In this document: piece after piece, positions 6,254-25,394 of the stretch
How the letters are laid out: each line of letters starts with the position of its first letter
Numbering within the stretch: position 1 is the stretch's first letter
DNA from: Pseudodesulfovibrio piezophilus C1TLV30
GTDB lineage: Bacteria; Desulfobacterota; Desulfovibrionia; Desulfovibrionales; Desulfovibrionaceae
Direction of reading: 5' to 3'
NCBI RefSeq assembly: GCF_000341895.1
Contig: NC_020409.1
Coordinates: 600,001-632,000 of the forward strand
DNA length: 32,000 nucleotides
The notes under the pieces: generated by a model
The model's input: the letters and a program-made list of their open reading frames with translations, nothing else
Databases searched by the model: none
What the model was told of the DNA's origin: nothing
Made by a program: the position numbers and the translations under genes

Positions 6254-6266
6254 CGAGGTTCATTCT

Positions 6267-8147
6267 ATGCAAACTTACTATTCAGATCTGCTCGTCATTG
6301 GTGCCGGGCTGGCCGGAGAGCGTGTAGCCTGTGAAGCGGCCCAAAAGGGATTCAAAGCCACCTGCCTTTCCATCGTTCCGGCAAGACGTTCTCATTCATC
6401 CGCAGCACAAGGTGGAATGCAGGCAGCTTTAGGCAACTGTGCCAAAGGTGAAGGAGATGGACCCGACATCCACTTCATAGATACTGTCAAAGGTTCTGAT
6501 TGGGGATGTGACCAGGAAGTCGCCAGGCTTTTTGCTGATGCCGCTCCCATTGAAATGCGTCGCTTAGCGCACTGGGGGGTCCCATGGAATCGCGTAGTTC
6601 CCGGACAGTCCTTCTATTTCAAAGGCGGAGAAAAATTCGAAAAATTTGAAAAAGAAGAAAATGAAGGACTCATAACTGCCCGCTCATTCGGTGGGACCGC
6701 CAAATGGCGAACCTGCTACACTTCAGACGGAACTGGCCATGCCGTTATGTGCACCATGGACAATCGGTGTGCAGAATTGGGCATTGATGTCTTTGACAAA
6801 AAAGAAGCCATCGCCCTTATTCATAACGGAGAATCATGCATGGGAGCCGTGGTTCGATGTCTGCGCACTGGCGAACTGGAAGTTTTTTTGGCCAAGGCAA
6901 CAACCATTTGCACCGGCGGTTTTGGCCGCATCTACAAAGCCACAACCAATGCTGTTATCTGCGATGGAGGAGGACATATCCTCGCTCACGATACCGGTTT
7001 GGTCCCCATAGGAAACCCTGAATCCATTCAATTTCACCCAACAGGAATTGTCCCAACGGATATTCTTGTGACTGAAGGATGTCGAGGCGATGGAGGAACT
7101 CTGCTGGATTGCAACGAAGAACGGTTCATGCACATCTATGAACCGGATAAAGCAGAGCTTGCATCACGCGATGTTGTCTCTCGATGGATGACACACCACA
7201 TGCGCGAAGGCAAAGGGGTCAAGAGTCCATACGGAGAGCATCTCTGGCTTGATATCCGCCATCTTGGAGACAAACACATCTCCACAAAACTCCGAGAAGT
7301 TGATGAAATCTGCCATCACTTCCTCGGGGTTGATCCCCGTACGGAGTTAATCCCGGTCCGCCCCACGCAGCACTATACCATGGCTGGCATCCGAACGAAT
7401 AAAGATGGAGCAGTCTACGGCCTGACAGGTTTGTTCTCTGCCGGAGAAGCAGCCTGTTGGGATATGCACGGATTCAACCGTCTGGGGGGAAACTCACTCG
7501 CTGAGACCGTCGTAGCTGGAGGAATCATCGGCGCAAAGATTGTCGAATTCCTTGAAGGTTACGAGACCAAGTTTGATACGGCCTGCATTAACAGCGCAGT
7601 CAAACAGCAGAAAGAACGAATTCACGATGTGATCCACGGCCGCAAGGGGAAACTCAACGTCTATGACGTTCGTAATGAGATGCAGGAAGCTCTTATGAAA
7701 GGCTGTTTCGTTTTCAGAAATCAGCAGGGGCTTGAAGAATGCGTGGCGACCCTGCAAGGAACCCTGGAAAAATCTCGCAAAGTCGGCCTTGTATCCAGTG
7801 GAGAGGGTCCAAACCACGAACTCGCCGCAACTCTCAAAATAGAAGGTCAGGTTAAGCTTGCCATGTGTATCGCTCAAGCTGCCCTGCAACGAAACGAATC
7901 TCGCGGTTCCCATAATCGGGAAGACTTCCCTGATCGCAATGACAAAGACTGGCTTAATCGTACTCTGGCTTACTGGCGAGAAGGCTCGGACATGCCGGAA
8001 TTTGTCTATGAAGATACCACTCCTGTTTTCGAATTGCCTCCGGGCGACCGCGGTTACGGCGGTGGAACGATCATTCCAGCTGACGAGAAATATGTCACTG
8101 ATCGAACTGTAAAAAGCCCTGTGACCGAAATCGGCAAAAAGAAGTAA
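6267..8147 (+). CDS. frdA: Fumarate reductase / succinate dehydrogenase flavoprotein subunit
   Basis: Motifs seen are the FAD fold DLLVIGAGLAGERVA, the covalent-FAD His motif RRSHSSAAQGGMQA, the active-site stretches HPTGI and TEGCRGDGG, and ESRGSHNREDFPDRND. Confidence 0.95.
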   Translation: MQTYYSDLLVIGAGLAGERVACEAAQKGFKATCLSIVPARRSHSSAAQGGMQAALGNCAKGEGDGPDIHFIDTVKGSDWGCDQEVARLFADAAPIEMRRLAHWGVPWNRVVPGQSFYFKGGEKFEKFEKEENEGLITARSFGGTAKWRTCYTSDGTGHAVMCTMDNRCAELGIDVFDKKEAIALIHNGESCMGAVVRCLRTGELEVFLAKATTICTGGFGRIYKATTNAVICDGGGHILAHDTGLVPIGNPESIQFHPTGIVPTDILVTEGCRGDGGTLLDCNEERFMHIYEPDKAELASRDVVSRWMTHHMREGKGVKSPYGEHLWLDIRHLGDKHISTKLREVDEICHHFLGVDPRTELIPVRPTQHYTMAGIRTNKDGAVYGLTGLFSAGEAACWDMHGFNRLGGNSLAETVVAGGIIGAKIVEFLEGYETKFDTACINSAVKQQKERIHDVIHGRKGKLNVYDVRNEMQEALMKGCFVFRNQQGLEECVATLQGTLEKSRKVGLVSSGEGPNHELAATLKIEGQVKLAMCIAQAALQRNESRGSHNREDFPDRNDKDWLNRTLAYWREGSDMPEFVYEDTTPVFELPPGDRGYGGGTIIPADEKYVTDRTVKSPVTEIGKKK

Positions 8148-8171
8148 CCCGGTTTAAAAAAGGAATCCATC

Positions 8172-8912
8172 ATGGGTAGACAAATAAAATTCGAGATATT
8201 CCGGTATAATCCCCAAAAAAAGGGGGATATCCCGCGTATGCAAACATACTCCCTTGACGAAACCCCGAATATGACCCTGTTCATAGCACTGAATAGACTA
8301 CGCGAAGAACAGGACCCGAGTCTTGTCTTCGACTTCTGTTGCAGAGCAGGAATATGTGGTGCATGCGCCATGGTTATCAACGGACGTCCAGGGCTGGCCT
8401 GTCAAACCAAAACCAAAGACCAACCAGGCCACATCATCCTTCACCCGCTTCCAGTGTACAAGCTGATAGGAGACCTTTCCGTCGACACCGGCGTCTGGTT
8501 CCGCACTATGTATGAAAAGACAGAATCCTGGATTCACACCAGGAAAGTCTTCGATCCAACTGCGGAAGAGGAACGCATGGACAACGCCATAGCTGAAGAC
8601 ATTTATGAGCTGGAGCGCTGTATAGAATGCGGTTGCTGCGTCTCGGCATGTGGAACAGCACGTCTTCGTGACGATTTCATGGGGGCAGCTGCTCTCAATC
8701 GAGTTGCCCGTTTTGTGGTGGATCCTCGAGATGAACGCACTGACAGAGAATATTATGAAGTCATTGGAAGTGATGAAGGAATATTCGGCTGCATGGGCCT
8801 GTTGGCCTGTGAAGATGTTTGCCCAAAAGGCTTGCCCTTGCAGAACCAACTGGGATTCCTTCGTCGTAAAATGGGTATTACGGCACTCAAAGACATATTT
8901 AAAAAGAAGTAA
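8172..8912 (+). CDS. frdB: Fumarate reductase iron-sulfur subunit
   Basis: Three Cys clusters are present: CCRAGICGACA for [2Fe-2S], CIECGCCVSAC for [4Fe-4S], and CMGLLACEDVCPKG for [3Fe-4S]. Confidence 0.95.
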   Translation: MGRQIKFEIFRYNPQKKGDIPRMQTYSLDETPNMTLFIALNRLREEQDPSLVFDFCCRAGICGACAMVINGRPGLACQTKTKDQPGHIILHPLPVYKLIGDLSVDTGVWFRTMYEKTESWIHTRKVFDPTAEEERMDNAIAEDIYELERCIECGCCVSACGTARLRDDFMGAAALNRVARFVVDPRDERTDREYYEVIGSDEGIFGCMGLLACEDVCPKGLPLQNQLGFLRRKMGITALKDIFKKK

Positions 8913-8914
8913 TT

Positions 8915-9751
8915 ATGCGCACTATCAATCCATCTGAAATCATTGATGCAGTGGCTTCCATGTGCATCAAGGCCAACACCGAACTTCCGGACGATGTCCG
9001 CGCCAAGCTCGAACAGGCCATGGCTGAGGAAACAAGTGCATCTGCCAAGGAAGTGCTTCGTCAATTACTGGAGAATGCAGACCTCTCCAAAGAGACTCTA
9101 CTGCCTTTGTGCCAAGACTGTGGACTTGCTGTCTACTTCGTTGAAATCGGAGATGAAGTTCGTATTGATGGCAATATCCGAGACGCGATCAATGAAGGTA
9201 CACGCAAAGGATATGCAGAAGGTTATCTTCGTAAATCCGCCTGCGACCCATTGACTCGTGTCAATACGGGAGATGGAACCCCGGCAGTCATCCACTATGA
9301 TTTTGTTCCTGGGGACAAGCTCAAAATCATATATATGGCCAAAGGCGGTGGAGCAGAAAATATGAGCCGCGCCACAATGCTCGCCCCAGCCCAAGGCTGG
9401 GAAGGCATCAAACAATTTGTCATCAACCGTGTAGCTGAAGCAGGTCCTAATCCATGCCCTCCCACTATTATAGGCATTGGAATAGGAGGAACATTCGATC
9501 ATGCGGCTAAAATAGCGAAGAAATCGTTAATACGTCGACTTGATGACACTCATCCTGACCCTGAAATCGCAGCCAAAGAAAAAGAACTCGAAGATTCTAT
9601 CAACAAATTGGGGATCGGACCCATGGGGCTTGGCGGCAAGACAACCGTTCTGAGCGTCAAACTGGCCATCGAACCCTGTCACTTGGCGAGTTTGCCACTT
9701 GCAGTCAATGTACAGTGTCACTCTCAGAGGCACGAGGAGGTCGAACTCTAA
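8915..9751 (+). CDS. fumA: Class I (Fe-S) fumarate hydratase, alpha subunit
   Basis: Signatures of the Fe-S hydro-lyase (tartrate/fumarate) alpha family are present: LCQDCGLAVYF, MAKGGGAENMS, IGIGIGGT. The gene context is frd plus malic enzyme. Confidence 0.85.
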   Translation: MRTINPSEIIDAVASMCIKANTELPDDVRAKLEQAMAEETSASAKEVLRQLLENADLSKETLLPLCQDCGLAVYFVEIGDEVRIDGNIRDAINEGTRKGYAEGYLRKSACDPLTRVNTGDGTPAVIHYDFVPGDKLKIIYMAKGGGAENMSRATMLAPAQGWEGIKQFVINRVAEAGPNPCPPTIIGIGIGGTFDHAAKIAKKSLIRRLDDTHPDPEIAAKEKELEDSINKLGIGPMGLGGKTTVLSVKLAIEPCHLASLPLAVNVQCHSQRHEEVEL

Positions 9752-10308
9752 TGGCTGAATACAAACTCACAACTCCATTGACGGATGAAGATATCAAACA
9801 ACTCAAAGCCGGAGATGTCGTGTTCTTGAGCGGATACATCTATTCCGCGCGAGATGCCGCTCACAAAAAACTCATAGATCTACTGGATGAAGATAAAGAA
9901 TTGCCATTCAAGCTGGAAGGCGCAGCAGTGTATTATGTCGGACCAAGTCCGGCTCCCCCTGGCCGACCAATCGGTGCTGCCGGTCCTACCACGAGCTACC
10001 GAATGGATTCCTATGCGCCAAGATTGCACAGCCTTGGACTGAAAGCGACCATTGGAAAAGGAAAGCGCAACGATGAAACCCGTCAAGCCATGCAGAATCA
10101 TACTGCAGTTTATTTTGGCGCAACGGGTGGAGCTGGTGCTCTTCTCTCGAATTCCATCGTCAAATCCACTGTTATTGCATTTGACGAACTCGGTCCCGAA
10201 GCTATTCGTGAGATGAAAGTCAAAGACTTTCCACTTCTTGTCATCAATGACTCTCATGGCGGGGAGCTTTATGCCGTCCCGGATCGCAAAGCTGCAGGCA
10301 TTGAATAA
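9751..10308 (+). CDS. fumB: Class I (Fe-S) fumarate hydratase, beta subunit
   Basis: Motifs are SGYIYSARDAAHKKL, VGPSPAPPGRPIGAAGPTTSYRMD and IGKGKR. I prefer ATG 9751, which has GAGGAGG at 9734-9740 and overlaps the alpha-subunit stop as TAATG, over the GTG at 9715 in the track. Confidence 0.85.
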   Translation: MAEYKLTTPLTDEDIKQLKAGDVVFLSGYIYSARDAAHKKLIDLLDEDKELPFKLEGAAVYYVGPSPAPPGRPIGAAGPTTSYRMDSYAPRLHSLGLKATIGKGKRNDETRQAMQNHTAVYFGATGGAGALLSNSIVKSTVIAFDELGPEAIREMKVKDFPLLVINDSHGGELYAVPDRKAAGIE

Positions 10309-10334
10309 CAAAATCTAACTACAAGGAGATAGAA

Positions 10335-11657
10335 ATGGCTTTATTTACCAAACAGGAAGCTCTCGATTACCACTCCATGGGGAGAAAGGGGAAAATCGAA
10401 GTTGTCCCAGTCAAACCTTGCGCAACACAAAAACACTTATCCATGGCATACAGCCCTGGTGTGGCTGAAGCCTGCCTTGAAATCGCTGAAGATGAGACAA
10501 AATCCTATGAGTATACTGCACGAGGCAATCTGGTTGCAGTTATTTCCAATGGAACAGCGGTTCTTGGATTGGGAAATATCGGCGCAGCAGCGGGCAAACC
10601 GGTTATGGAAGGCAAAGGTGTGCTCTTCAAGGTCTTTGCCGACGTTGACTGCTATGACATCAACCTCGATGTGACCGATCCTGACAAACTCATTGAAATT
10701 GCAAAATCAATGGAACCGACTTTTGGTGGTATCAATCTCGAAGATATCAAATCTCCGGAATGCTTCTACATTGAGGAGACTTTAAAAAAGGAAATGAACA
10801 TTCCTGTCTTCCATGACGATCAGCACGGCACAGCTATTGTGACTGCCGCAGGCATGATGAATGCCGTGGAAATTTCAGGAAAAAAAGCTCAGGACCTTCG
10901 GGTTGTCGTCTCAGGCGCAGGGGCCTCGGCCATTGCATGCACCAATCTATACCGAAACATGGGAGTCAAACCTGAAAATATTGCCATGTTTGATTCACGT
11001 GGACATATTAACAAGTCTCGCACTGACTTGAATAAATTCAAACAACAATATGCTACGGATATCGAGTATGGATCTCTTGCTGAAGCCATGGTTGGTGCGG
11101 ACTGCTTCCTCGGCTTATCTGTCAAGGACATGGTGTCCAAAGACATGGTCAAATCCATGAGTGACAATTGCCCGATCATATTTGCCTGCGCCAACCCTGA
11201 TCCGGAAATAACATACAACGACGCCAAGGAGGCCCGCCCGGATTGCATCATGGGCACAGGTCGCTCCGACTATCCAAATCAAGTCAACAATGTACTTGGA
11301 TTCCCTTTTATTTTCCGTGGAGCGCTTGATTGCGGAGCAACTGCCATTACGGAGGAAATGAAGCTAGCGGCAGCCCAAGCCCTTGCAGACCTGGCCAAGG
11401 AAGAGGCTCCTCAATCCGTATGCGATGCTTATGGCGTCGATAAACTTGAATTCGGTCGTGACTATGTCATCCCCAAAGCGCTTGACCTTCGTCTGATCGA
11501 ATATGTTTCCGTGGCAGTGGCCAAGGCCGCCATGGAGGCTGGCATTGCACGAAAGCAACTCAATCTTGATGAATATCGGAAAGAGTTGCGTCAACGCATT
11601 GCTGACTCCACGAAACGAGTGAGTTCCTTTGTGGATTCATACGACCTTGGGATTTAG
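10335..11657 (+). CDS. NAD(P)-dependent malic enzyme, short form without a PTA-like domain
   Basis: Motifs are [62 protein letters not shown] and [15 protein letters not shown]. The RBS AAGGAG precedes the start. Confidence 0.9.
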
Positions 11658-11668
11658 CATCAATCCTT

Positions 11669-11696
11669 CCGGGCGGGGAGTTGCGGCCCTGCCCGG
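11669..11696 (+). other. GC-rich intercistronic hairpin between the malic enzyme and transporter genes
   Basis: CCGGGCGGGG (11669-11678) pairs with CCCTGCCCGG (11687-11696), with one G-U pair and an 8-nt loop. No T-tract follows, so processing, stabilisation or attenuation is more likely than full termination. Confidence 0.35.
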
Positions 11697-11778
11697 CCCT
11701 GAAGACCTCAGGGAGCCAGCACTGGGATTGCTGTCCAACACGCGGTGATGAACACCGCAAGACAAGAGAGGAAAAACA

Positions 11779-13320
11779 ATGAGTGCTCAAGCTGCAGAGA
11801 GCGGAAATGGCAAAATCATCGGGTTTATTTTAGGCCCCGTCATCTTTGTCTTAATGCTCATCATTCCGGCTCCGGAAGGCATGAAAGTCGAAGCATGGCG
11901 GGTAGCAGCCGTCACTGCTCTCATGGCCATCTGGTGGATCACCGAAGCGATTCCCATTCCTGCGACATCGCTCCTCCCTATCGCCATGTTCCCCCTGCTC
12001 GGGATCATGAAATCTGCGGCCGCGACCGCTCCTTACGCCAACCATCTTATTTATCTTTTCATGGGTGGTTTTTTCCTGGCTGTGACTATGGAACGATGGA
12101 ATCTGCACAGACGTGTCGCCCTCTACACTATCCGTGCAATAGGCACCAGCCCCGGACGAATGATCATGGGATTCATGGTCGCCACGGCCTTTCTGTCCAT
12201 GTGGGTCTCCAATACCGCGACCACAATGATGATGGTCCCTATCGGAATGGCTGTCATCCAACAGGCAACAGGCTTTGAATCCAGTGATCTCCGTTCCAGC
12301 ACCAATACCGGGCCGGAAGCGAACTTTGGAAAATGCCTCATGCTGGGTATCGCGTATGCAGCCTCCATGGGTGGAGTCGGCACTATCATTGGTACTCCAC
12401 CAAACACAGTCATGGCAGGTATGGTCGAAAAAATGTTTGGTGTTGAAATAGGATTCGGCCAATGGATGCTCTTCGGAGTTCCTCTTGCCACCATTATGGT
12501 CCTTTTGTCCTGGTTTATATTGACGAAATGGCTCTTCCCCATGGGAAGCATGCAAATTGCCGGTGGGGACAAGATTATTAATGATGAAGTCAAGAAACTT
12601 GGTCCCATGTCATCAGAAGAAAAGAAAATTGTAATCGTAGGCTGCTTTGTCGCCGTATTCTGGTTGGCACGTGGCTTTCTCAAAAAAGTTCCTTTCATCA
12701 TCGATGCCATGCCCCACTTCGGGTACATCCATGATGCAACAATCGGTATCCTTGGTGCCTTGATTCTGTTCGCTCTGCCTACAAACTTCAAAAAAGGTGA
12801 ATTCCTTCTGGATTGGAAAACAGCAGTCAAAATCCCTTGGGATGTCATCTTGCTCTTTGGTGGAGGTCTTGCCATTGCTAACGGTTTTGCAAAGACAGGA
12901 CTTGCCTCCTATATAGCTTCTCAACTTGGAGCTTTAGAAGGAACAAGTATTCTCATTTTTGTGGCTGTTGTTGTCTTGATCACTATCTTCCTGACGGAAA
13001 TAACTTCAAATACCGCTACGGCAACTCTGCTTGTCCCAATCATGGGAAGTGCAGCCATTGCCATGGGAGTCCATCCATACGCTACAATCGTCGGAGCTTG
13101 TGTCGCTGCATCATTTGCCTTCATGCTCCCGGTTGCCACCCCTCCAAATGCCGTTGTCTTCGGCAGTGGATGTGTTTCAATCAAACAAATGGCAAAAGCC
13201 GGTTTATGGTTGAATATCCTTGGAACCATTCTAATCACGGCATTTGTCGTATACTTCCTGCCCGTCATCTGGGGTGTAGACCTCAATGTCGTACCGGATT
13301 GGGCTGTCATGCCTAAATAA
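11779..13320 (+). CDS. DASS/SLC13-family anion:cation symporter, probably a C4-dicarboxylate transporter
   Basis: The 513-aa protein is polytopic. It has the two hairpin-tip motifs SNTATTMMMVPI and SNTATATLLVPI, plus GTPPNT and ATPPNA. It is the last gene of the frd-fum-mae operon. Confidence 0.85.
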   Translation: MSAQAAESGNGKIIGFILGPVIFVLMLIIPAPEGMKVEAWRVAAVTALMAIWWITEAIPIPATSLLPIAMFPLLGIMKSAAATAPYANHLIYLFMGGFFLAVTMERWNLHRRVALYTIRAIGTSPGRMIMGFMVATAFLSMWVSNTATTMMMVPIGMAVIQQATGFESSDLRSSTNTGPEANFGKCLMLGIAYAASMGGVGTIIGTPPNTVMAGMVEKMFGVEIGFGQWMLFGVPLATIMVLLSWFILTKWLFPMGSMQIAGGDKIINDEVKKLGPMSSEEKKIVIVGCFVAVFWLARGFLKKVPFIIDAMPHFGYIHDATIGILGALILFALPTNFKKGEFLLDWKTAVKIPWDVILLFGGGLAIANGFAKTGLASYIASQLGALEGTSILIFVAVVVLITIFLTEITSNTATATLLVPIMGSAAIAMGVHPYATIVGACVAASFAFMLPVATPPNAVVFGSGCVSIKQMAKAGLWLNILGTILITAFVVYFLPVIWGVDLNVVPDWAVMPK

Positions 13321-13327
13321 TATCCTG

Positions 13328-13357
13328 CCTACGGGCGACCAACCGGTCGCCCGTAGG
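13328..13357 (+). terminator. Hairpin terminator after the DASS transporter gene
   Basis: CCTACGGGCGACC pairs with GGTCGCCCGTAGG in a perfect 13-bp stem with a 4-nt loop (AACC). Only TT follows the stem. Confidence 0.6.
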
Positions 13358-13419
13358 TTCAGCCCCCGGTCATCAATTTTATTACTTGAGCTGCCGTAAT
13401 CTTACGGCGGAGAGGAAAG

Positions 13420-14184
13420 ATGCGCTCAAAATCGAAGATAATTCCGATCATATTGGTAGCTGTTCTTCTCTTGGTGGTAGCTATTTTCGGCTACGTTCAT
13501 CCAGGAAAAACACAACACATGCCAGTACGGATACTTTTTGAAAACAATGGGGGGAAAGTCATATTCTCCCACCTGATACACCACCGGGATTACAAAATAG
13601 ATTGTGCCACATGTCATCATGACAAAAAACAGAAACCTCTCTCACAAGATGACACTGCGTTACATTGTGGCTCCTGTCACCCGAATGAATTTAATGAAGA
13701 ATTCATTGCCAGTCACATGGATTCCTTTCCAGATGAAACATACTGTGTCCGATGCCATCATACTGAATTTGCCGAAGTTATCTTTAATCACGAAGAACAC
13801 AAAGAATATGCTGACGACTGCTCTGATTGTCACCATGGCAAAGAAATAGAACCCACCCCTCAGCGATGTTCTCACTGCCATAAGTCCCATGATATCAATG
13901 GACTGATCAGTATGCGACAAGCAGGACATCAAAGCTGTGCAAATTGTCATGAGGATATGTTTGAGACTGGATTATCAAGCTGCAAATCATGCCATGTCCA
14001 AGTGGATATGACCAAATATGAAGGAGACTATACATCCTGCAATTCATGCCATGAAGCCGAAGCACGAGAATTGGTTCTTCCACGTATGAATGCATTTCAT
14101 GATCAATGCCTCTCCTGTCACGAAAAAGAAGGAGCTGGCCCATATGGTCCCGACGATTGCAACAAATGCCACATTAGTAGGTAA
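13420..14184 (+). CDS. dhcA: Membrane-anchored decaheme cytochrome c heading the rnf operon (DhcA-like)
   Basis: There are ten CXXCH motifs in 254 aa: CATCH, CGSCH, CVRCH, CSDCH, CSHCH, CANCH, CKSCH, CNSCH, CLSCH, CNKCH. An N-terminal hydrophobic anchor or signal is present (IIPIILVAVLLLVVAIFGYV). The RBS GGAGAGG precedes the start. Confidence 0.9.
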   Translation: MRSKSKIIPIILVAVLLLVVAIFGYVHPGKTQHMPVRILFENNGGKVIFSHLIHHRDYKIDCATCHHDKKQKPLSQDDTALHCGSCHPNEFNEEFIASHMDSFPDETYCVRCHHTEFAEVIFNHEEHKEYADDCSDCHHGKEIEPTPQRCSHCHKSHDINGLISMRQAGHQSCANCHEDMFETGLSSCKSCHVQVDMTKYEGDYTSCNSCHEAEARELVLPRMNAFHDQCLSCHEKEGAGPYGPDDCNKCHISR

Positions 14185-14192
14185 TCAGAACA

Positions 14193-15299
14193 ATGAATAT
14201 CCAAGATATCCTTCCAATTAAACAGGCGGAATTCACCCTGATGCAATATTGTCCCCTGGTGACATGTGGGCAAACCGTCAAACGAGGGCAAAGGTTGGCG
14301 ACCTCTTCAATCCAAGGCATGGGTGATATCCATTCACCCGTGGCAGGGCGAGTCAGCCATCTTGATTCATTCCGTATCCGTATAACAGCCGAAGGTAACG
14401 AAGAAGTAGATTTTACTGATCTCAATAAATTCAAAGGACAGCAACTCTATAAAAAACTTCTTGAACTTGGAGCCGACATTCCTCCCATAGCCGAGGTCGA
14501 GACTCTTATCATCAATAGCGTTGATGCAGAAATTGGTGTTCTGACTCGTAAGGAACTTCTGGTTACGTCTCAAGCCCCTCTTGAATGTGGACTTGAAGTC
14601 ATTCAAACCCTCTACAAACCAGAACTGACTGTCATGGCAACACTCAAAGGCACATCAAATTCACTGGGAAACCTCCTCTGCGTCGAAATCTCGGACCAAT
14701 ACCCGGCAGGACTTGATCCCCTGGTAGCCTTAGCCGTAACCGGCATTGAATCACCAGAAAAGACACTCGTGGTTGACTTGGAAACGCTATTCCACATTGG
14801 CCGAATTATGGAAACCGGACTCCCTTTATTTGAAACAATGGTCACAATTGGTAAAGAAGCACACATTGTCCCTCTTGGCTTGGCAGTCGGTGACATTTTA
14901 GAACATTTTGGAGAAAAATTAGTTGATCACGACAGGATCGTCCTAGGAGGCGCTCTGCGCGGTGCAGCTGCGGCATCAGCGACGCAAGGAGTAGATCGAA
15001 AGACCAATGCCATTACACTTATTCGAACCCCTGTCCCAATCGCACTGGATGCGGCCTGTGTTGGGTGTGGAGAATGTGTCCGACACTGCCCCGCCCGTCT
15101 CGATCCTGCCATGATTACCAGCTATGCAGAATTTGGCCTCTATGAAAAAGCTGCCGAAGAATTTGTAAACACTTGTTTTGAATGTGGACTCTGTGGCTTT
15201 TTTTGCATCGCACACCGCCCCATGCTCCAGTATATACGCTTAGCAAAAAAGGAATTGGCCCTTGGTACAGTCAAATCCAGGGAGGAGGGAGCACTATGA
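14193..15299 (+). CDS. rnfC: RnfC-like subunit, short, with a degenerate nucleotide-binding region
   Basis: The RnfC N-terminal barrel motif GDIHSPVAGRV is present. The C-terminus has a 2x[4Fe-4S] region (CVGCGECVRHCP and CFECGLCGFFC). The gene sits before rnfD. Where canonical RnfC has GLGGAGFP and ECEPY, this protein has ELGADIPP and DAEIG. Confidence 0.8.
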   Translation: MNIQDILPIKQAEFTLMQYCPLVTCGQTVKRGQRLATSSIQGMGDIHSPVAGRVSHLDSFRIRITAEGNEEVDFTDLNKFKGQQLYKKLLELGADIPPIAEVETLIINSVDAEIGVLTRKELLVTSQAPLECGLEVIQTLYKPELTVMATLKGTSNSLGNLLCVEISDQYPAGLDPLVALAVTGIESPEKTLVVDLETLFHIGRIMETGLPLFETMVTIGKEAHIVPLGLAVGDILEHFGEKLVDHDRIVLGGALRGAAAASATQGVDRKTNAITLIRTPVPIALDAACVGCGECVRHCPARLDPAMITSYAEFGLYEKAAEEFVNTCFECGLCGFFCIAHRPMLQYIRLAKKELALGTVKSREEGAL

Positions 15300-16246
15300 A
15301 GCCAATTATCCCATTTCATCTGACAGTATCTGTCCCGCCCCATCGTCATTACGGCACTTCAATACGCGGCAGGATGTTTGCCATTCTACTGGCTATGCTT
15401 CCGGCAGCAACCATGGGGCTAGCCAACTATGGCATGCCAGCTCTTAGGGTCATGTGTCTTTCTATGAGTGCTGCAATTTTCACAGAAGCTCTCTGTCATT
15501 GGCTTATGGAAAGTAAAAGTGAACTTGAGAATCTCCATGCCTTTATCGTGGGATTATCCTTTGCATTCCTCTTACCGGCATCAGCACCTTGGTGGCTTGT
15601 CACTTTTGGAAGTGCCACTTCCATAATTCTCGGAAAAATGATTTTTGGCCCCCTCGGTGGAAGCCCTTTTTGTGCTCCTCTCATCGGATGGGCGGTTTGC
15701 CGAATCTCATGGCCTGCTTTCATGGATATTGATGCTTCCATGCTTTCTGCCGACCTGACATTCCCCCTGGCCCAACTCAAGGACTTCGGACTGAACTCGG
15801 TCATGATAACCGATACAAAACAACTTTTTCTGGGCAAACAGCTTGGGGGATTAGGTGCTGTTCAAATAGCCGGAATCTTGCTTGGTGGCATTATCCTCGT
15901 GGCTAAGAGGCATGTTTCATCCATCATTCCAATGGGGGTCATCGGCGGAGTCTGTATCACCGCTGGACTCTTCAACATGCTCAATCCAAACATTTACGCA
16001 ACACCCGGCTTCCACCTCCTGACCGGATCAACACTTTTCGGAGCCTTTTTCCTCGCAACCGATGGTTCATCCTCACCCAACAGACAAATCCCCATGCTCC
16101 TCTTCGGCTTACTCATCGGGATAATGATTGTTCTTATTCGAATTTATGGTTCATACCCGGATGGCGTCCCTTTTGCCATTTTAATAGCAAACCTTTTTAC
16201 TCCGGTTTTCGAGCGAATTCGCCCCCGGCCCTTTGGTGTGAGGTGA
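15296..16246 (+). CDS. rnfD: RnfD, polytopic membrane subunit
   Basis: ATG 15296 overlaps the rnfC stop as ATGA and is preceded by AGGGAGGAGGG. The N-terminus has SVPPHRH, and the remainder is multi-TM. The track start at 15182 lies inside rnfC. Confidence 0.85.
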   Translation: MKPIIPFHLTVSVPPHRHYGTSIRGRMFAILLAMLPAATMGLANYGMPALRVMCLSMSAAIFTEALCHWLMESKSELENLHAFIVGLSFAFLLPASAPWWLVTFGSATSIILGKMIFGPLGGSPFCAPLIGWAVCRISWPAFMDIDASMLSADLTFPLAQLKDFGLNSVMITDTKQLFLGKQLGGLGAVQIAGILLGGIILVAKRHVSSIIPMGVIGGVCITAGLFNMLNPNIYATPGFHLLTGSTLFGAFFLATDGSSSPNRQIPMLLFGLLIGIMIVLIRIYGSYPDGVPFAILIANLFTPVFERIRPRPFGVR

Positions 16247-16249
16247 CAT

Positions 16250-16825
16250 ATGAAAGAAATGATGAAAATGATGCTTGTTCTTTCTCTTATCTGTGGCTTT
16301 GCAGGGATTTCTCTTGCCGCACTGAAGGAGATCACCTCACCTGTAATCGAAGAGCAGGTACTGACCTTTGTTCAGGCTCCGGCAATTGAGTATGTGCTGA
16401 AGAGCCACGACAATGACCCCATAAAAGACCGAAAAAAATATTCTCTGAATACTCGAGTAGTGACAGTATTTCCAGGCATAAAGAATGGAATCCTCGAAAG
16501 CATAGCATTTGAAACTTCTGGCAAAGGATATGGCGGAAATATCGGTGTCATGGTTGGTTTTGATATCTCTACTCAAACTCTTTCAGGCATTGGCATCACA
16601 ACCCTGAAAGAAACTCCGGGCCTTGGTTCCCGTGTTGCCGAACATGGTTATACGACACAATTCAGAGGCCACCCAATCCAATCCATAGCTCTCAAAAAAA
16701 ATGGTGGAGATATAGACGCTGTAGCAGGGGCAACCATCTCGTCAACCGGCACAGTCGCTGCGGTTCAAGATGCAATATCTCTCTTTATGCAACTCAAAAC
16801 AGAACTTGCCGACGGCTGGTCCTAG
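16250..16825 (+). CDS. rnfG: RnfG, FMN-binding subunit
   Basis: It has an N-terminal anchor (MMLVLSLICGFAGISLAAL), an FMN_bind-type domain, and the flavinylation motif DAVAGATISSTG. Confidence 0.9.
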   Translation: MKEMMKMMLVLSLICGFAGISLAALKEITSPVIEEQVLTFVQAPAIEYVLKSHDNDPIKDRKKYSLNTRVVTVFPGIKNGILESIAFETSGKGYGGNIGVMVGFDISTQTLSGIGITTLKETPGLGSRVAEHGYTTQFRGHPIQSIALKKNGGDIDAVAGATISSTGTVAAVQDAISLFMQLKTELADGWS

Positions 16826-16854
16826 GCTGACAAATGCCTCATTCGGAGAAGACA

Positions 16855-17535
16855 ATGAATCAATTATGGAAAGAATTTTCCAAAGGACTCTGGAAAGATC
16901 TCCCCCCCTTCAAACTGGTCCTCGGCCTCTGTCCAGTCCTTGCTGTCACGAATACGACTCAAAATGGCCTTGGCATGGGGGTGGCTGTTATCTTTGTACT
17001 CACCCTCTCAAACCTCGTGGTTTCATTACTACGAAAGATAATTCCCTCGAAGGTCCGTATTGCCTGTTTTATTGCTATCTCCGCTTCGCTTGTCGTGGCG
17101 GTTGAACTTCTTATGCAAGCATTTGCTTATCCTCTCTACCAACAACTCGGCATCTTTGTTCCTTTGATAGTGGTAAATTGTATAATCCTCGGGCGAGCTG
17201 AAGCTTTTGCTTCCAAAAATTCCCCACTTATGGCCATGGCCGATGGCATGGGGATGGGGGTCGGATTCACCATGTCGCTCACGTTTCTCGGGGCTCTTCG
17301 TGAAATTCTTGGAACCGGAAAACTCTTTGGTACGTACGTTGCCTGGGGAGACTTCGAACCCGTCGGATTAATGGTCCAGGCACCTGGAGCTTTTGTCAGC
17401 CTCGGAATTCTACTCGCCTTGATGACGTTTGTTGAAAACATACAGCGAAAACGCAGAGGGTTAGCCGCAATAGAAGGTCCTACACACGATTGCGGAGCGT
17501 GCGGCGGATGTGGCAAAGCGTCAAACTGTTCATAG
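16855..17535 (+). CDS. rnfE: RnfE membrane subunit with a Cys-rich C-terminal tail
   Basis: Motifs are LGLCPVLAVT and VNCIILGRAEAFA. I prefer ATG 16855 (GGAGAAG RBS) over 16834. The tail reads THDCGACGGCGKASNCS. Confidence 0.85.
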   Translation: MNQLWKEFSKGLWKDLPPFKLVLGLCPVLAVTNTTQNGLGMGVAVIFVLTLSNLVVSLLRKIIPSKVRIACFIAISASLVVAVELLMQAFAYPLYQQLGIFVPLIVVNCIILGRAEAFASKNSPLMAMADGMGMGVGFTMSLTFLGALREILGTGKLFGTYVAWGDFEPVGLMVQAPGAFVSLGILLALMTFVENIQRKRRGLAAIEGPTHDCGACGGCGKASNCS

Positions 17536-17548
17536 TGGAGCATAAACA

Positions 17549-18124
17549 ATGCAAGATTACTTTCTTCTCTTTATTGGTGCAATGTTCGTCAACAACATTG
17601 TTCTGGCCCAATATCTCGGGAATTGTCCTTTCATAGGCACATCCAAAGAGTCAGGTGTTGCAATCGGCATGGGTGGAGCCGTTGTCTTTGTCGCAGTTAT
17701 GGCCACAGGGATTACATGGTTGGTTCAACACCATCTGCTTATCCCCTTTGGACTCGGTTATCTTCAAACATTGGCCTTTATTCTGGTTATTGCAGCATTA
17801 GTCCAATTTGTAGAAATGTTTCTCAAAAAAATGATTCCTCCTTTATACAAATCCCTAGGCATATTTTTACCTCTCATTACAACAAATTGTGCAGTCATGG
17901 GTATCGCTCTGATCTGTCAGCGAGAGGAATTCGGTCTGCTCCGATCCGTACTTTTCGCCTTTGCTTCCGGACTTGGCTTCATGCTCGCTCTGGTTCTTCT
18001 CGCTGGAATTCGTGAAAAACTGGCCGTTCGAAGACTCCCAGTATCCATGAGAGGAACGCCTATCGGTTTGATAATGGCAGGGCTGATGTCCCTGACTTTT
18101 TTCGCTTTCAAGGGAATGATTTAA
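17549..18124 (+). CDS. rnfA: RnfA membrane subunit
   Basis: Motifs are NNIVLAQYLGNCPFIG and ITTNCAVMGIAL. The 191-aa protein has six hydrophobic helices. Confidence 0.9.
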   Translation: MQDYFLLFIGAMFVNNIVLAQYLGNCPFIGTSKESGVAIGMGGAVVFVAVMATGITWLVQHHLLIPFGLGYLQTLAFILVIAALVQFVEMFLKKMIPPLYKSLGIFLPLITTNCAVMGIALICQREEFGLLRSVLFAFASGLGFMLALVLLAGIREKLAVRRLPVSMRGTPIGLIMAGLMSLTFFAFKGMI

Positions 18125-18181: not shown

Positions 18182-20287
18182 ATGATATTAATATCAGGAC
18201 TCACTCTTTTCAGCATAGGTCTTGGAGCTGCTGCAATATTGGGTATAGCTTCGAAACTCCTCTACGTAAAAGAAGATCCACGGATTAATTTGATTGAAGA
18301 GTCCCTCCCCGGAGCCAATTGCGGTGGCTGTGGCTTCCCTGGGTGTTCAGGTGCAGCAGCAGCAATTGTGGCTGGCAAGGCTCCTGCGACAGTCTGTATT
18401 GTTGCCGACTCTGAAATGAGTCTGCTTGTTGCAGGAATTATGGGGCAGGAGGTTATTGAAAGAGAACCGGAACTCGCTATCCGGGATTGCTCAGGAGGAA
18501 TGCGTGCATCCGATTCCTTCCATTATGAAGGAGCACATGACTGCCGAGCCGCCCATCTCCTCTATGGTGGTTCAAAATCCTGTCCTGAAGGATGTCTCGG
18601 CCTGGGAACCTGTATGCGGGCCTGCCCTTTCGATGCTATCCAAATGAATGACCAGAATCTTCCAATCATTGATCCATTGGCATGCAAGGCATGTGGAAAC
18701 TGCGTTGACGCCTGCCCTCGTGGAGTTATTGGTGTAGCTGGAATCTCTGCTCGTCTGCTCCATCTCAACCTCACATCAGACTGTCTTGCCCCATGTCGCC
18801 AAAAATGCCCTGCACAAATAAATATTCCCAGATATATTGAACAGATAAAATCTGGTGATTACAATGGTGCGATTATGACTATCAAAGAGCGTAATCCTCT
18901 TCTTCTAACGTGTGGACGAGTTTGTCCCCGCCCCTGCGAGACTGAATGCCGCCGTCAATATGTGGATGAGACCGTCGGTATAAACATGCTCAAAAGGTTT
19001 GTGGCAGATAGGGAACTTCATACAGGAAAACACCTCCCTATTTCCTGCGCCAAAGATACCGGGAAAAAAGTCGCCATCATCGGCGGAGGTCCAGCAGGCC
19101 TCTCATGCGCTTATTTTCTACGTCGACTGGGGCATCAACCAACCATTTTTGAAGCAATGCCAAAACTTGGTGGGCAGACCCGCTATGGCATTCCGGAATA
19201 TCGCCTTCCTAAAGCAGATCTTGATTGGGAGATTCAAGGCATACTCGATCTTGGGATCGAAGCGAAAATGAATACAAAATTCGGTGTTGATTTTACCATT
19301 GAGACACTCAAAAAAGACAACTTTGAGACTATCTTCATTGGTATTGGAGCTTGGCAAGCTTCAGGTATGTATGCAGAAGGAGAAGACCTGAATGGTGTCA
19401 TGGGCGGTATCGAATTTCTCACTGCACACGCCATGGGACAAAAGATTGAAACAGGAGAACATGTCATCGTCGTAGGAGGAGGAAATACCGCTATTGATGC
19501 TGCGAGGACCTGTATTCGTCTCGGGGCACAGGTCACTCTTATGTATCGACGAACTCGTGCTGAAATGCCTGCTGATATGGAAGAAATTATTGGAGCAGAA
19601 GACGAAGGAGTCCAGTTCAAGTTTTTGGCAGCCCCTGCGCGAGTCATTGGAGATGAAAAGCACCACGCCACTCATTTGGAGTATTATGAGATGGAACTGG
19701 GAGAACCAGATGAATCTGGTCGGCGAAAACCTATCAAGAAAGAAGGCTCTGAACAACGTATGTGTGCAAATCTGATTATCCCGGCCATAGGACAAAAACC
19801 AGATCTCAAGTGTCTTTATGAAAATGAAGAAGAAGGAAGCTGCCTTTTGGAAACAACCCGATGGCAAACAATTGTTGCAGATTCCGAGACTTTCGAAACA
19901 GCTATACCAGGAGTCTTTACTGCCGGAGATGTCTATACTGGACCTGATTTGGTCATATCGGCAATTGGCGATGGCAGAAAAGCCGCACGAGCCATGCACT
20001 ACCATATGACAAAGGGCATTATTCCTCTCTCCGACCAGACACAAACAACAATGATCCCATATACGTTATTCAAGGAAGTTAGTGTTAAAGAAAAGAAAGA
20101 ACGAGCGACTCTTCCTCTCCTTTGTTATGGCGAGGAAAGAAATTGTACATTCAATGAGGTAGAAGGGACTCTTTCGGAGAGACAAGCGCAAAAAGAGGCA
20201 GATCGCTGCCTTCGCTGCGGCTTGCTCTGCTATGATGGCGACTCTGCACAGGAAACTCAGGGAGTTTTGAACACATTTGAAGAATAA
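18182..20287 (+). CDS. rnfB: RnfB fused to a GltD/NfnB-like FAD- and NAD(P)H-dependent oxidoreductase module
   Basis: Residues 1-195 are RnfB: a TM helix, NCGGCGFPGC, and a 2x[4Fe-4S] region (CPEGCLGLGTCMRACP and CKACGNCVDACP). Residues ~196-610 are GltD-like: CRQKCPAQINIPRYI...CGRVCPRPCETEC, the FAD fold VAIIGGGPAGLSCA, the NAD(P)H fold VVGGGNTAIDAAR followed by MYRRTRAEMPA, LGEPDESGRRKP, and GVFTAGDV. The C-terminus has EADRCLRCGLLC. Confidence 0.85.
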   Translation: MILISGLTLFSIGLGAAAILGIASKLLYVKEDPRINLIEESLPGANCGGCGFPGCSGAAAAIVAGKAPATVCIVADSEMSLLVAGIMGQEVIEREPELAIRDCSGGMRASDSFHYEGAHDCRAAHLLYGGSKSCPEGCLGLGTCMRACPFDAIQMNDQNLPIIDPLACKACGNCVDACPRGVIGVAGISARLLHLNLTSDCLAPCRQKCPAQINIPRYIEQIKSGDYNGAIMTIKERNPLLLTCGRVCPRPCETECRRQYVDETVGINMLKRFVADRELHTGKHLPISCAKDTGKKVAIIGGGPAGLSCAYFLRRLGHQPTIFEAMPKLGGQTRYGIPEYRLPKADLDWEIQGILDLGIEAKMNTKFGVDFTIETLKKDNFETIFIGIGAWQASGMYAEGEDLNGVMGGIEFLTAHAMGQKIETGEHVIVVGGGNTAIDAARTCIRLGAQVTLMYRRTRAEMPADMEEIIGAEDEGVQFKFLAAPARVIGDEKHHATHLEYYEMELGEPDESGRRKPIKKEGSEQRMCANLIIPAIGQKPDLKCLYENEEEGSCLLETTRWQTIVADSETFETAIPGVFTAGDVYTGPDLVISAIGDGRKAARAMHYHMTKGIIPLSDQTQTTMIPYTLFKEVSVKEKKERATLPLLCYGEERNCTFNEVEGTLSERQAQKEADRCLRCGLLCYDGDSAQETQGVLNTFEE

Positions 20288-20458: not shown

Positions 20459-20486
20459 TTGACCATCAATACTATACGAGTATCTT
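20459..20486 (+). promoter_or_regulatory. Possible sigma-70-type promoter for ackA-por
   Basis: The pattern is TTGACC (20459-20464), N16, TATCTT (20481-20486), about 50 nt upstream of the ackA ATG. This is a pattern match only. Confidence 0.3.
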
Positions 20487-20538
20487 GGCACCCTGTCTCC
20501 TGTCACACACTTGGATACAGGCAAAAAGGATTCCTGTT

Positions 20539-21738
20539 ATGAACATTCTCGTTATCAATTGCGGCAGTTCTTCATTGAAATACCAGCTTCGAAATATAAA
20601 CACCCAGAGAGTCATGGCGAGCGGCGTGGTGGAACGGATAGGTGAGTCCATGGGCCAAATCACACAAAGATCTTTTCCAGACAAATGGCCTGATACCAAG
20701 GATACGGAAGAATTGCCCATTCTCAATCACGAGGCTGCGATGAAGCTTATGGTTTCAAAACTCACCAATGGAGTTATCCAATCCCCTCATGAAATCGACG
20801 CAATAGGACATAGAGTTGTTCAGGGGGGTGAATCTTTCTCTCACCCAGTATTGGTCGATGAAAATGTCATGAATACGATCAAAGATAATATCCCACTCGC
20901 CCCCCTTCACAACCCTGCCAACCTCATAGGCCTTGAACAGGCAATGATCCTGTTCCCCGAAACACCAAATGTTGCAGTATTTGATACCGAATTCCATCAA
21001 ACACTTCCAAGGCATGCCTATATGTATCCTGTGCCGAAGATATTTTATGAACAGTTCAAGGTACGCAAATACGGCTTTCATGGCACTTCACATAAATATG
21101 TTAGTAAAACAGCATCAGTCTTTATCGGACAAAAAATTGAAGAGACCAGTCTCATTACTGTGCATCTTGGTAATGGCTGCTCCATGGCTGCCATAAAAAA
21201 TGGTAAATGCATTGAGACTTCTATGGGCTTGACTCCGTTGGCTGGCCTCATGATGGGGACTCGATGTGGAGATATTGACCCGGCTTTTCATATTTTTCTT
21301 GCAAAAAACAAAGGATTACCCCTCTCCGAGATTGATATATTACTCAATAAATCAAGTGGATTATTAGGAATATGTAGAAAGAACGACATGCGTGACATCC
21401 ATGAAGCCCGGCTTCACGGTGACGACGATGCACAGCTTGCTTTCGAGATGTTTACCTACCGGGTCAAGGCAACCATCGGTGCCTATCTTGCGATCCTCGG
21501 ATCGGTGAACGCCATTGTTTTCACTGCTGGCATCGGAGAAAATGATCCTGATGTCAGGTCTATGGCATGTGATGGTTTAGAGAATTTCGGTATCAATATT
21601 GACCCCACAAAAAATAATGAAAAAACCGCCGAGGCACGGTATATTAATACTGAACAGAGTCGGATCAAAGTTCTCGTGGTCCCCACCAACGAGGAATTAG
21701 AAATCGCGAAAGCCACGGCAGAAGTCGTCAATGACTAA
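20539..21738 (+). CDS. ackA: Acetate kinase
   Basis: Motifs are MNILVINCGSSSLKYQL, IGHRVVQGG, FDTEFHQTLP, YGFHGTSH, HLGNGCS, GIGEND and NEELEIA. The start is taken at ATG 20539, not the track start at 20485. Confidence 0.95.
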   Translation: MNILVINCGSSSLKYQLRNINTQRVMASGVVERIGESMGQITQRSFPDKWPDTKDTEELPILNHEAAMKLMVSKLTNGVIQSPHEIDAIGHRVVQGGESFSHPVLVDENVMNTIKDNIPLAPLHNPANLIGLEQAMILFPETPNVAVFDTEFHQTLPRHAYMYPVPKIFYEQFKVRKYGFHGTSHKYVSKTASVFIGQKIEETSLITVHLGNGCSMAAIKNGKCIETSMGLTPLAGLMMGTRCGDIDPAFHIFLAKNKGLPLSEIDILLNKSSGLLGICRKNDMRDIHEARLHGDDDAQLAFEMFTYRVKATIGAYLAILGSVNAIVFTAGIGENDPDVRSMACDGLENFGINIDPTKNNEKTAEARYINTEQSRIKVLVVPTNEELEIAKATAEVVND

Positions 21739-21770
21739 GGGCGTAATCCCCAGAATATATACGTAATTGA

Positions 21771-25394
<3,624 letters not shown>

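Follow-up and report, generated by a model that had tools for sequence, protein, structure and literature searches.

The window analyzed here, a stretch of 32,000 nucleotides (nt) from Pseudodesulfovibrio piezophilus C1TLV30 (RefSeq assembly GCF_000341895.1, contig NC_020409.1, forward-strand positions 600,001 to 632,000), contains one tightly packed operon on the + strand that encodes, in this order, a decaheme cytochrome, RnfC, RnfD, RnfG, RnfE, RnfA, and an RnfB fusion protein (Table 1). As far as its sequence can show, the RnfC of this operon is an iron-sulfur-only subunit without the NuoF-type pocket for flavin mononucleotide (FMN) and NAD(H), and hence would not be the contact of the complex with NAD(H). 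Probably, the NAD+ arm has lost its recognizable flavin sites, and electrons move between RnfB and a periplasmic cytochrome by way of RnfA/RnfE and RnfG. The trait is a property of the whole protein family and no peculiarity of the gene in the window. Two linked changes, the loss of a threonine from RnfD and the fusion of an NADPH- and flavin adenine dinucleotide (FAD)-binding module to RnfB, had not been connected with it in the first-pass annotation, a model-generated reading of the bare sequence that had described the altered RnfC, and they change the meaning of the finding.

Loss of the flavin and nucleotide motifs from RnfC

In cryo-electron microscopy (cryo-EM) papers and a 2025 review, RnfC is the FMN- and NAD-binding output module of Rnf complexes, and NqrA is seen as descended from it without cofactors (PMC9588780, PMC11889175, PMC12174285). 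The references for comparison were Escherichia coli RsxC (from NC_000913) and the RnfC proteins of three cryo-EM structures (PDB 9ERI, 7ZC6, and 8AHX); the RnfC and RnfD sequences used as references were reassembled from HMMER alignments and are short of a few residues at their ends. The first-pass annotation had given RnfC 368 amino acids (aa), which is correct, and the two E. coli motifs that it quoted are real: RsxC carries GVAGLGGAGFPTGVKL and IINAAECEPYITAD. The RnfCs of the cryo-EM structures carry IVG(L/M)GGA(T/I)FP..VKL and N(G/A)(A/S)ECEPYLT at these places.

In a MAFFT alignment of the window RnfC, 13 relatives, and the four references, a clean 14-residue gap between LELGAD and IPPIAE stands opposite G(L/M)GGAxFPTxVKL, and NSVDAEIG is aligned to NAAECEPY. 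Of the motif N(A/G)xECEPY(L/I)T, which adjoins the flavin and the nicotinamide, the window sequence NSVDAEIGVLT keeps only the Asn and one Glu. The string ELGADIPP had been read correctly, but its position, first given as about nt 14460 to 14483, had to be moved by 3 nt to 14463 to 14486; INSVDAEIG had been placed exactly (residues 107 to 115, nt 14511 to 14537). The register was confirmed by phmmer against PDB chains, in which query residues 20 to 56 matched residues 48 to 84 of Acetobacterium woodii RnfC and residues 95 to 356 matched residues 151 to 436. When a 23-sequence family profile was aligned by hhalign with a 5-sequence canonical profile (probability 100, E value 3.4e-60, 367 columns), GLGGAxFPTxVK again lay opposite the gap. 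The claim that the glycine-rich flavin loop and the ECEP motif are gone was thus borne out by the 14-residue gap and by VDAEIG in pairwise, multiple, and profile-profile alignments, and both MAFFT and hhalign place the FMN loop as deleted, not as conserved at a shifted position. A string of the type G.G..G or GG.G was looked for throughout the RnfC protein and none was found, so the flavin motif has not merely moved; the sole GG, that of GGALRG, matches GGPMMG in the SLBB-like domain of canonical RnfCs.

Profile models gave the same picture. The window RnfC had no match to Pfam Complex1_51K or SLBB even at an E value of ≤10, compared with 165.7 and 34.5 bits, respectively, for the E. coli RsxC control in the same run, and weak matches were obtained to NQRA_2nd (E value, 0.02) and NQRA_N (E value, 0.028). 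The match to RnfC_N was partial (profile positions 43 to 86 of 101) and scored 23.9 bits against a cut-off of 25.6. The scores fell below the cut-offs of the rnfC model TIGR01945 (129.2 bits; cut-off, 245.95), the RsxC equivalog model (118 bits; cut-off, 345), the rnfC_Methano model (98 bits; cut-off, 650), and the nqrA models (23 to 38 bits; cut-offs, 321 to 505).

The flanking domains had been called intact. This was correct for the C-terminal domain, in which both CxxCxxCxxxC motifs are complete, but the N-terminal barrel is trimmed, with an arm of about 25 aa and 11 aa within the barrel missing from the MAFFT alignment. Also deleted are the GG(R/L)xxD loop, about 10 aa that follow the EDNK strand, and 6 aa of the SLBB-like domain. 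All eight cluster cysteines are invariant across 23 RnfC sequences of 32 to 61% identity. A sequencing error, a mis-called start, or a frameshift was ruled out by the 8 nt that separate the gene from the cytochrome stop codon, by the continuous open reading frame (ORF), and by the same gaps in 80 of 80 other loci; a pseudogene was ruled out by the conservation at 32 to 65% identity and by 34 invariant columns, which include all cluster ligands.

The proposal that RnfC is not the NAD(H) site of the complex therefore stands at the level of sequence, with the loop deleted and Complex1_51K undetectable, and RnfC would bind neither flavin nor NAD(H). The opposite view, that RnfC binds flavin and NAD(H) through other residues in a complex that works as an ordinary ferredoxin:NAD+ oxidoreductase, would agree with physiological models of Desulfovibrio alaskensis, which fit such a role (PMC4215793), and with the persistence of part of the Rossmann-like domain and of the acidic residue E113 of the ECEP motif. 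We consider it highly improbable, given that the phosphate- and ribityl-binding glycine loop is deleted, not substituted, that four more deletions lie in the same domain, that neither a glycine-rich string nor a Complex1_51K signal was detected, and that attempts to demonstrate ion gradients coupled to electron transfer from ferredoxin to NAD+ in vesicles of D. alaskensis “have been unsuccessful” (PMC4841214).

Predicted structure of RnfC

A model of the window RnfC was built with AlphaFold2 on the family alignment and was compared with the PDB by Foldseek. The model had a mean predicted local distance difference test (pLDDT) score of 79.5 and a predicted template-modeling score of 0.75. The barrel, including the GDIHSPVAGRV hairpin, and the Rossmann-like core exceeded a pLDDT of 90, and the cluster domain was low, as one would expect of a model made without clusters. 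The top matches were the RnfC chains 9eri_C, 8ahx_C, and 7zc6_C (E values, 1e-21 to 1e-25; template-modeling [TM] scores, 0.67 to 0.68), followed by NqrA chains (TM score, 0.63), and flavoproteins of the NuoF/HydB type came far lower (TM score, about 0.4). The predicted fold is thus that of the RnfCs seen by cryo-EM and is nearly as close to that of NqrA, and the protein is a subunit of the RnfC/NqrA fold that is intermediate between RnfC and NqrA in cofactor content: like NqrA, it is an RnfC homolog without FMN and NAD(H) sites, but unlike NqrA, which has no iron-sulfur clusters, it keeps all eight cysteines.

This likeness raises the question of whether RnfC is a structural relic of the NqrA kind, with clusters that are dead ends for electron transfer and are kept for the stability of the fold. 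NqrA is retained in Na+-NQR (the NADH:quinone oxidoreductase that translocates Na+) without any cofactor (PMC12174285), and the near-equal fit of the model, the weak NqrA matches in Pfam, and the loss of the upstream flavin site from RnfD (see below) would all agree with such a role. It is nevertheless improbable, since NqrA lost its cysteines, and here all eight are invariant over a deep divergence that includes a homolog from Desulfobacterales, a degree of conservation beyond what a purely structural role usually preserves.

Distribution of the degenerate RnfC

The closest database proteins are 355 to 400 aa long, share 35 to 65% identity with the window RnfC, come from Pseudodesulfovibrio, Maridesulfovibrio, and Desulfovibrio, and mostly bear no annotation beyond “4Fe-4S dicluster domain-containing protein.” Species-representative genomes were scanned and gave at least 589 confirmed relatives, and the best 80 of these at least 589 loci were inspected (loci are designated by L numbers). 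All 80 belong to Desulfovibrionaceae, and they include the cultured strains Desulfovibrio piger ATCC 29098, Salidesulfovibrio brasiliensis JCM 12178, and Pseudodesulfovibrio karagichevae. The 14-residue gap was present in all 81 RnfCs (the 80 loci and the window), and the ECEPY position was occupied mostly by NPEPG, NPDPG, or PPEPG and otherwise by DAExG. A multiheme cytochrome gene lay directly 5′ of rnfC in every one of the 80 loci that was not cut by a contig end; cytochromes with 10 hemes were commonest, and variants with 5 and 4 hemes also occurred. The co-occurrence of the degenerate motif with cytochrome-linked rnf operons, for which a survey had been suggested, therefore extends to all of these uncut loci. 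Many Pseudodesulfovibrio and Maridesulfovibrio genomes have two paralogous cytochrome-rnf operons, one with a 10-heme and one with a 5-heme cytochrome, and both operons have the degenerate RnfC and the RnfB fusion (pairs L003/L068, L008/L024, L028/L050, L031/L052, and L042/L064, among others).

When 1.84 billion cluster representatives were searched with a profile, 6,498 matches were obtained, 1,660 of them at an E value of ≤1e-30. Both motifs were missing from 148 of the 150 best cluster representatives, some of which had the short gap and others a loop of normal length without glycines, such as GIIEIGTPALPLHVKLA; several RnfCs of the latter type pass the cut-off of the rnfC model. Named members outside Desulfovibrionaceae came from Desulfobacterales, unclassified “Deltaproteobacteria,” and metagenome-assembled genomes (MAGs) of Candidatus Poribacteria. 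A Desulfobacterales MAG (L082) had the same layout of cytochrome, degenerate RnfC, RnfD, RnfG, RnfE, RnfA, and RnfB fusion. In a “Deltaproteobacteria bacterium” MAG (L083; GCA_016208165.1, positions 8001 to 15466), a degenerate RnfC, an RnfB-GltD fusion, and ApbE were found with no cytochrome gene; the RnfC of this locus (P0188) is 450 aa long, has the glycine-free loop GIIEIGTPALPLHVKLA at normal length, and passes the TIGR01945 cut-off with 350 bits. The loss is inherited and marks a large family of Rnf complexes with a linked cytochrome, which belong to Desulfovibrionaceae and to some other Desulfobacterota.

Loss of the flavin site from RnfD and retention of the site in RnfG

In canonical RnfD, the threonine that carries FMN directly precedes PL..LK, as in TTAT-PL of Clostridium tetanomorphum (T153) and A. 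woodii (T156) and SQAT-PL of E. coli. The window RnfD reads SADLTF-PL, and the position was not threonine in 75 of 76 family RnfDs, in which it was D, A, Y, N, or another residue. The threonine was likewise missing from the RnfDs of L082 and L083. The cytochrome as a cause of this loss was unsupported, since L083 lacks both the cytochrome and the threonine. RnfG, by contrast with the RnfD site, keeps its flavinylation motif DAVAGATISS (nt 16715 to 16744; aligned with 8ahx_G), and [SA]GA[TS] was found in every complete RnfG of the family. With the FMN loop of RnfC and the threonine of RnfD both lost, the canonical arm from RnfG through RnfD and RnfC to NAD+ is left without either of its recognizable flavin sites.

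Fusion of RnfB to an NADPH- and FAD-binding module

Residues 5 to 191 of the fusion protein align with residues 16 to 188 of A. woodii RnfB and 7 to 194 of C. tetanomorphum RnfB, and residues 191 to 684 align end to end with 9bov_A (E value, 7.9e-127), 9n5u_A, 8oh5_C, 5jca_L, and GltD (E values, 1e-117 to 1e-127). The module contains the Fer4_20 2x[4Fe-4S] motifs, an FAD-binding GGGPAG (nt 19082 to 19099), and a second dinucleotide fold with YRR (nt 19544 to 19552), and the Fer4_20 cysteines, GGGPAG, and YRR are conserved relative to 9bov_A and 9n5u_A. Its relatives, namely, NfnA of NfnABC (9BOV and 9N5U), StnC of StnABC (8OH5), the large subunit of NfnI (5JCA), and GltD, are all NADP(H)-binding proteins of the NfnB type, with which it shares the 2x[4Fe-4S] cysteines, the GxGxxG for FAD, and the YRR nucleotide motif. 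Those modules belong to soluble bifurcating complexes, whereas the window module is joined to RnfB, a membrane-anchored subunit of an ion pump, and has no gene for an NfnA- or HydB-type partner nearby. The fused module would be the pyridine-nucleotide port of the complex. The C-terminal tail of the fusion also contains CLRCGLLC (CxxCxxxC; residues 676 to 683, nt 20207 to 20230), which aligns with CLECGC of NfnA/StnC-type proteins and may be a remnant or a part of an extra cluster site.

RnfB was fully visible in 66 operons (65 loci and the window). A fusion of about 700 aa was present in 45 of them, mostly from Pseudodesulfovibrio, Maridesulfovibrio, and related lineages. A plain RnfB of 277 to 321 aa, with no GltD-like ORF within 10 kb, was present in the remaining 21 (D. 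piger, Mailhella, and gut Desulfovibrio), and on these grounds we reject the idea that the NADPH fusion generally makes up for the loss from RnfC. Many marine Desulfovibrionaceae have been said to have “lost rnfB” and to have an “FAD-dependent oxidoreductase” instead, and an analogy with NQR has been drawn (PMC11434368, 2024). Fused RnfBs are annotated in databases as “FAD-dependent oxidoreductase,” which accounts for the reported loss; the supposed loss is a fusion that keeps the N-terminal half of RnfB.

Two other arrangements of the complex bear on the fusion. In one, the U-shaped path is kept, the fused module docks on RnfC and takes electrons from its clusters, and the complex is a ferredoxin:NADP+ oxidoreductase to which the cytochrome is a side port. 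RnfB and RnfC are adjacent and firmly associated in cryo-EM structures (PMC9588780, PMC11889175), and docking would account both for the invariant RnfC cysteines and for the pairing of a degenerate RnfC with a fusion in the cytochrome-less L083. We regard this arrangement as unlikely, because an RnfD without the flavinylated threonine, in L082 and L083 as well, breaks the usual link from RnfG through RnfD to RnfC, because 21 operons combine a degenerate RnfC with no fused or nearby GltD-like module, and because the position of the module directly after the ferredoxin domain of RnfB itself suggests that it is wired to the RnfB chain.

In the other, the polarity is swapped: the RnfC clusters dock ferredoxin or flavodoxin, NADPH is used at RnfB, and the complex is an ion-gradient-driven NADPH:ferredoxin oxidoreductase. 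This would give a partner to the invariant RnfC clusters, which have no obvious one, and would suit both L083 without its cytochrome and the replacement by the NADPH module of the distal ferredoxin domains of RnfB, which are thought to be the ferredoxin dock in A. woodii (PMC11889175). The swap would, however, require electrons to pass through an RnfD without a covalent FMN site, would leave the near-universal cytochrome gene unexplained, and could not apply to the operons with a plain RnfB; we think it rather improbable.

Electron route through the complex

In the route that we favor, electrons would enter or leave on the cytoplasmic side at RnfB, where the fused NfnB/GltD-like module would be a new site for NADPH in the complex of the window and where ferredoxin may dock too. 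They would cross the membrane by the cluster of RnfA/RnfE to the flavinylated RnfG and pass from there to the membrane-anchored periplasmic decaheme cytochrome c that is encoded directly upstream, and ion translocation would be coupled at RnfA/RnfE. The route, the direction of the electrons, and the coupling to ions are inferred, and the sequence from RnfB to RnfA/RnfE, RnfG, and cytochrome would parallel by analogy the one proposed for Methanosarcina. In the genomic setting of the window (see below), malic enzyme would supply NADPH, pyruvate:ferredoxin oxidoreductase (PFOR) would supply reduced ferredoxin, and electrons from the oxidation of C4-dicarboxylates would reach the periplasmic cytochrome and the menaquinone pool. 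Contrary to the usual assumption, RnfC is probably not the place where these pumps reduce NAD+. The unsuccessful vesicle assays mentioned above also support this route.

Several observations weigh against it. The eight invariant cysteines argue that RnfC still carries electrons, and the proposed route gives these electrons no destination; a flavin or a nucleotide could, moreover, bind in an unforeseen manner. In the clade of the window, RnfD has a threonine one residue upstream (LTFPL), although without the small-residue context of flavinylation, and the RnfD of Methanosarcina acetivorans has been reported with SGTF (PMC4023990), so that flavinylation at a shifted position is conceivable in this clade. 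L083 has no cytochrome gene, and the 21 operons with a plain RnfB have no GltD-like gene within 10 kb. Finally, dhcA mutants of D. alaskensis G20 had no fitness defect under conditions where rnf mutants had one (PMC4215793), which counts against an obligatory exit by the cytochrome, in so far as the RnfC of G20 belongs to the family; its membership and that of Desulfovibrio vulgaris RnfC would follow from the 80 of 80 surveyed relatives. Other c3-type cytochromes might replace DhcA in G20.

Comparison with known systems

Canonical Rnf complexes (A. woodii, C. tetanomorphum, and Azotobacter vinelandii [PDB 9ERI, 7ZC6, and 8AHX] and Rsx of E. coli) share with the window operon six homologous subunits in the order rnfCDGEAB with RnfC first among them, the fold and the C-terminal 2x[4Fe-4S] domain of RnfC, the flavinylation motif of RnfG, and the cysteines of RnfA and RnfE. 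They differ in that the window RnfC is about 70 aa shorter and without the FMN loop and ECEP, RnfD has no FMN threonine, a decaheme cytochrome gene precedes rnfC, and an NADPH/FAD module stands in place of the distal ferredoxin domains of RnfB. As in Na+-NQR, the oxidation of pyridine nucleotide seems to have been taken over by an input-side flavoprotein module, which is NqrF there and the RnfB fusion here. Unlike Na+-NQR, the window complex has the N-terminal domain of RnfB and no NqrF, its recruited module resembles NfnB/GltD and not FNR, there is no evident quinone site, and a cytochrome c is the partner.

The Rnf of M. acetivorans (mmcA-rnfCDGEAB) also has a multiheme cytochrome gene directly 5′ of rnfC and the same gene order. 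That complex has a cytochrome subunit (MmcA), does not use NAD(P), and has RnfG as the proposed donor to the cytochrome (PMC4023990, PMC12174285); the cofactor-binding sites of its RnfB, RnfD, RnfG, and RnfC have been reported to be conserved (bioRxiv 10.1101/2022.07.20.500911), whereas the window complex has lost those of RnfC (FMN) and RnfD. Its acceptor is methanophenazine and it has no NADPH module fused to RnfB, unlike the complex of the window, in which the predicted NADPH module argues against unreactivity with NAD(P) of the Methanosarcina type.

The operons of D. alaskensis G20 and D. vulgaris (dhcA-rnfCDGEABF) likewise consist of a decaheme cytochrome gene followed by rnfCDGEAB (PMC4841214). 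The papers on these species treat Rnf as a ferredoxin:NAD+ oxidoreductase, and a missing FMN/NADH site is not mentioned in them (PMC4841214, PMC4215793); the Desulfovibrio gigas genome paper lets the cytochrome link the periplasmic cytochrome pool to cytoplasmic NAD(P)H or ferredoxin (PMC4287179). In the papers searched, neither the absence of the FMN/NADH site from a sulfate-reducer RnfC nor that of the flavinylation site from RnfD was found stated; an earlier mention elsewhere is possible.

Operon layout and genomic setting

The cytochrome gene is the first of the operon and stops 8 nt ahead of the rnfC start; its product begins with MRSKSKIIPIILVAVLLLVVAIFG, a signal or anchor helix. The start of rnfD and the stop of rnfC overlap as ATGA.

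Table 1. Features of the rnf operon in the window
Feature	Positions (nt)	Strand	Evidence
Decaheme c3/c7-type cytochrome c, 254 aa	13420..14184	+	Pfam Cytochrom_CIII, Cytochrome_C7; 10 CXXCH
RnfC, 368 aa; RnfC/NqrA fold, 2x[4Fe-4S], apparently without FMN/NADH site	14193..15299	+	Alignments, Pfam, AlphaFold2 model
RnfC barrel-sandwich hairpin GDIHSPVAGRV, residues 44-54	14322..14354	+	Aligns with PVHAPTSG / PVHASVSG of canonical RnfCs
RnfC ELGADIPP, residues 91-98; 14-residue deletion site between D95 and I96 (nt 14475/14476)	14463..14486	+	MAFFT, hhalign, 81/81 sequences
RnfC DAEIG in place of ECEPY, NuoF-type nucleotide/flavin contact motif	14523..14537	+	MAFFT, hhalign
RnfC first [4Fe-4S] motif CVGCGECVRHCP; C289, C292, C295, C299	15057..15092	+	Motif location
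RnfC second [4Fe-4S] motif CFECGLCGFFC; C328, C331, C334, C338	15174..15206	+	Aligns with canonical CIECGxCxYVC
RnfD, 316 aa	15296..16246	+	Pfam NQR2_RnfD_RnfE, E 1.4e-83
RnfD residues 151-162, SADLTFPLAQLK; FMN-threonine position ((S/T)xAT-PL) is Phe	15746..15781	+	Alignment with A. woodii, C. tetanomorphum, E. coli
RnfG, 191 aa, periplasmic FMN subunit	16250..16825	+	Pfam FMN_bind
RnfE; conserved cysteines in LGLCP, NCIILG	16834..17535	+	Pfam Rnf-Nqr, E 2.5e-64
RnfA; conserved cysteines in LGNCP, NCAVMG	17549..18124	+	Pfam Rnf-Nqr, E 1e-57
RnfB-NfnB/GltD-like fusion, 701 aa	18182..20287	+	Pfam, NCBIfam, PDB matches
RnfB part of fusion, residues 1-195: transmembrane helix, CGGCGFPGC cluster domain, one 2x[4Fe-4S] ferredoxin domain	18182..18766	+	Pfam FeS, Fer4
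NfnB/GltD-like module of fusion, residues 199-701	18776..20287	+	Pfam Fer4_20 (E 4.5e-22), Pyr_redox_2 (E 8.5e-31); NCBIfam PRK12771/PRK12814

The rnf operon is surrounded by a block of C4-dicarboxylate genes (5609 to 13320 and 20485 to 25394 in the window), in which a sensor kinase and a sigma-54 regulator, frdCAB (fumarate reductase), a class I fumarase (fumAB), an NADP-dependent malic enzyme (maeB), and a DASS sodium:dicarboxylate symporter precede the operon, and acetate kinase (ackA) and PFOR follow it. The gene order is identical around the orthologous rnf paralog in seven other genomes (L002, L003, L005, L007, L008, L010, and L012); other rnf paralogs of these genera instead have ApbE encoded downstream. 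The synteny with frd, fumarase, malic enzyme, DASS, ackA, and PFOR suggests a role of this rnf paralog in malate and fumarate metabolism, with which the need for Rnf in growth of D. alaskensis on malate and fumarate (PMC4215793) agrees.

Two further genes of the window were observed. An ORF at 12 to 1955, which the start of the window may cut, encodes an MFS-type membrane domain (residues about 136 to 300) fused to an ApbE flavin-transferase domain (357 to 630); a homolog in L006 lies directly 3′ of rnfB, as does rnfF of D. alaskensis. A nickel superoxide dismutase gene (Sod_Ni; E value, 1.7e-37) is located at 26356 to 26868 on the − strand, in surroundings that otherwise resemble a segment of a strict anaerobe.

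Implications

Two annotation problems follow. The cut-off of the rnfC model is passed by some proteins that lack the flavin loop, and the fused RnfB is labeled “FAD-dependent oxidoreductase.”

Tentatively, a clade of sulfate-reducer Rnf may have been rebuilt independently in the way that Na+-NQR was: both flavins of the NAD+ arm would have been discarded, a cytochrome would serve as the outlet, and an NfnB-like NADPH inlet would have been fused to RnfB later, in marine lineages, to give an ion-pumping oxidoreductase between NADPH (and/or ferredoxin) and cytochrome c. If this is true, it would be a second, independent case of an Rnf-type pump that swapped its input and output modules, comparable with the origin of Na+-NQR. 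Current models of energy conservation of the Desulfovibrio type have Rnf as a central coupling site, at which ferredoxin and NAD+ yield NADH with export of ions, and let the Hdr/Flox and Nfn cycles use the NADH (PMC4215793); the ferredoxin:NAD+ role in these models would then be wrong. If the RnfC of this family is without an NAD(H) site and its RnfD without covalent flavin, this step of the models would have to be given new redox partners, energetics, and ion stoichiometry, shifted toward the periplasmic cytochrome pool and, in the marine genera, toward NADPH through the RnfB fusion.

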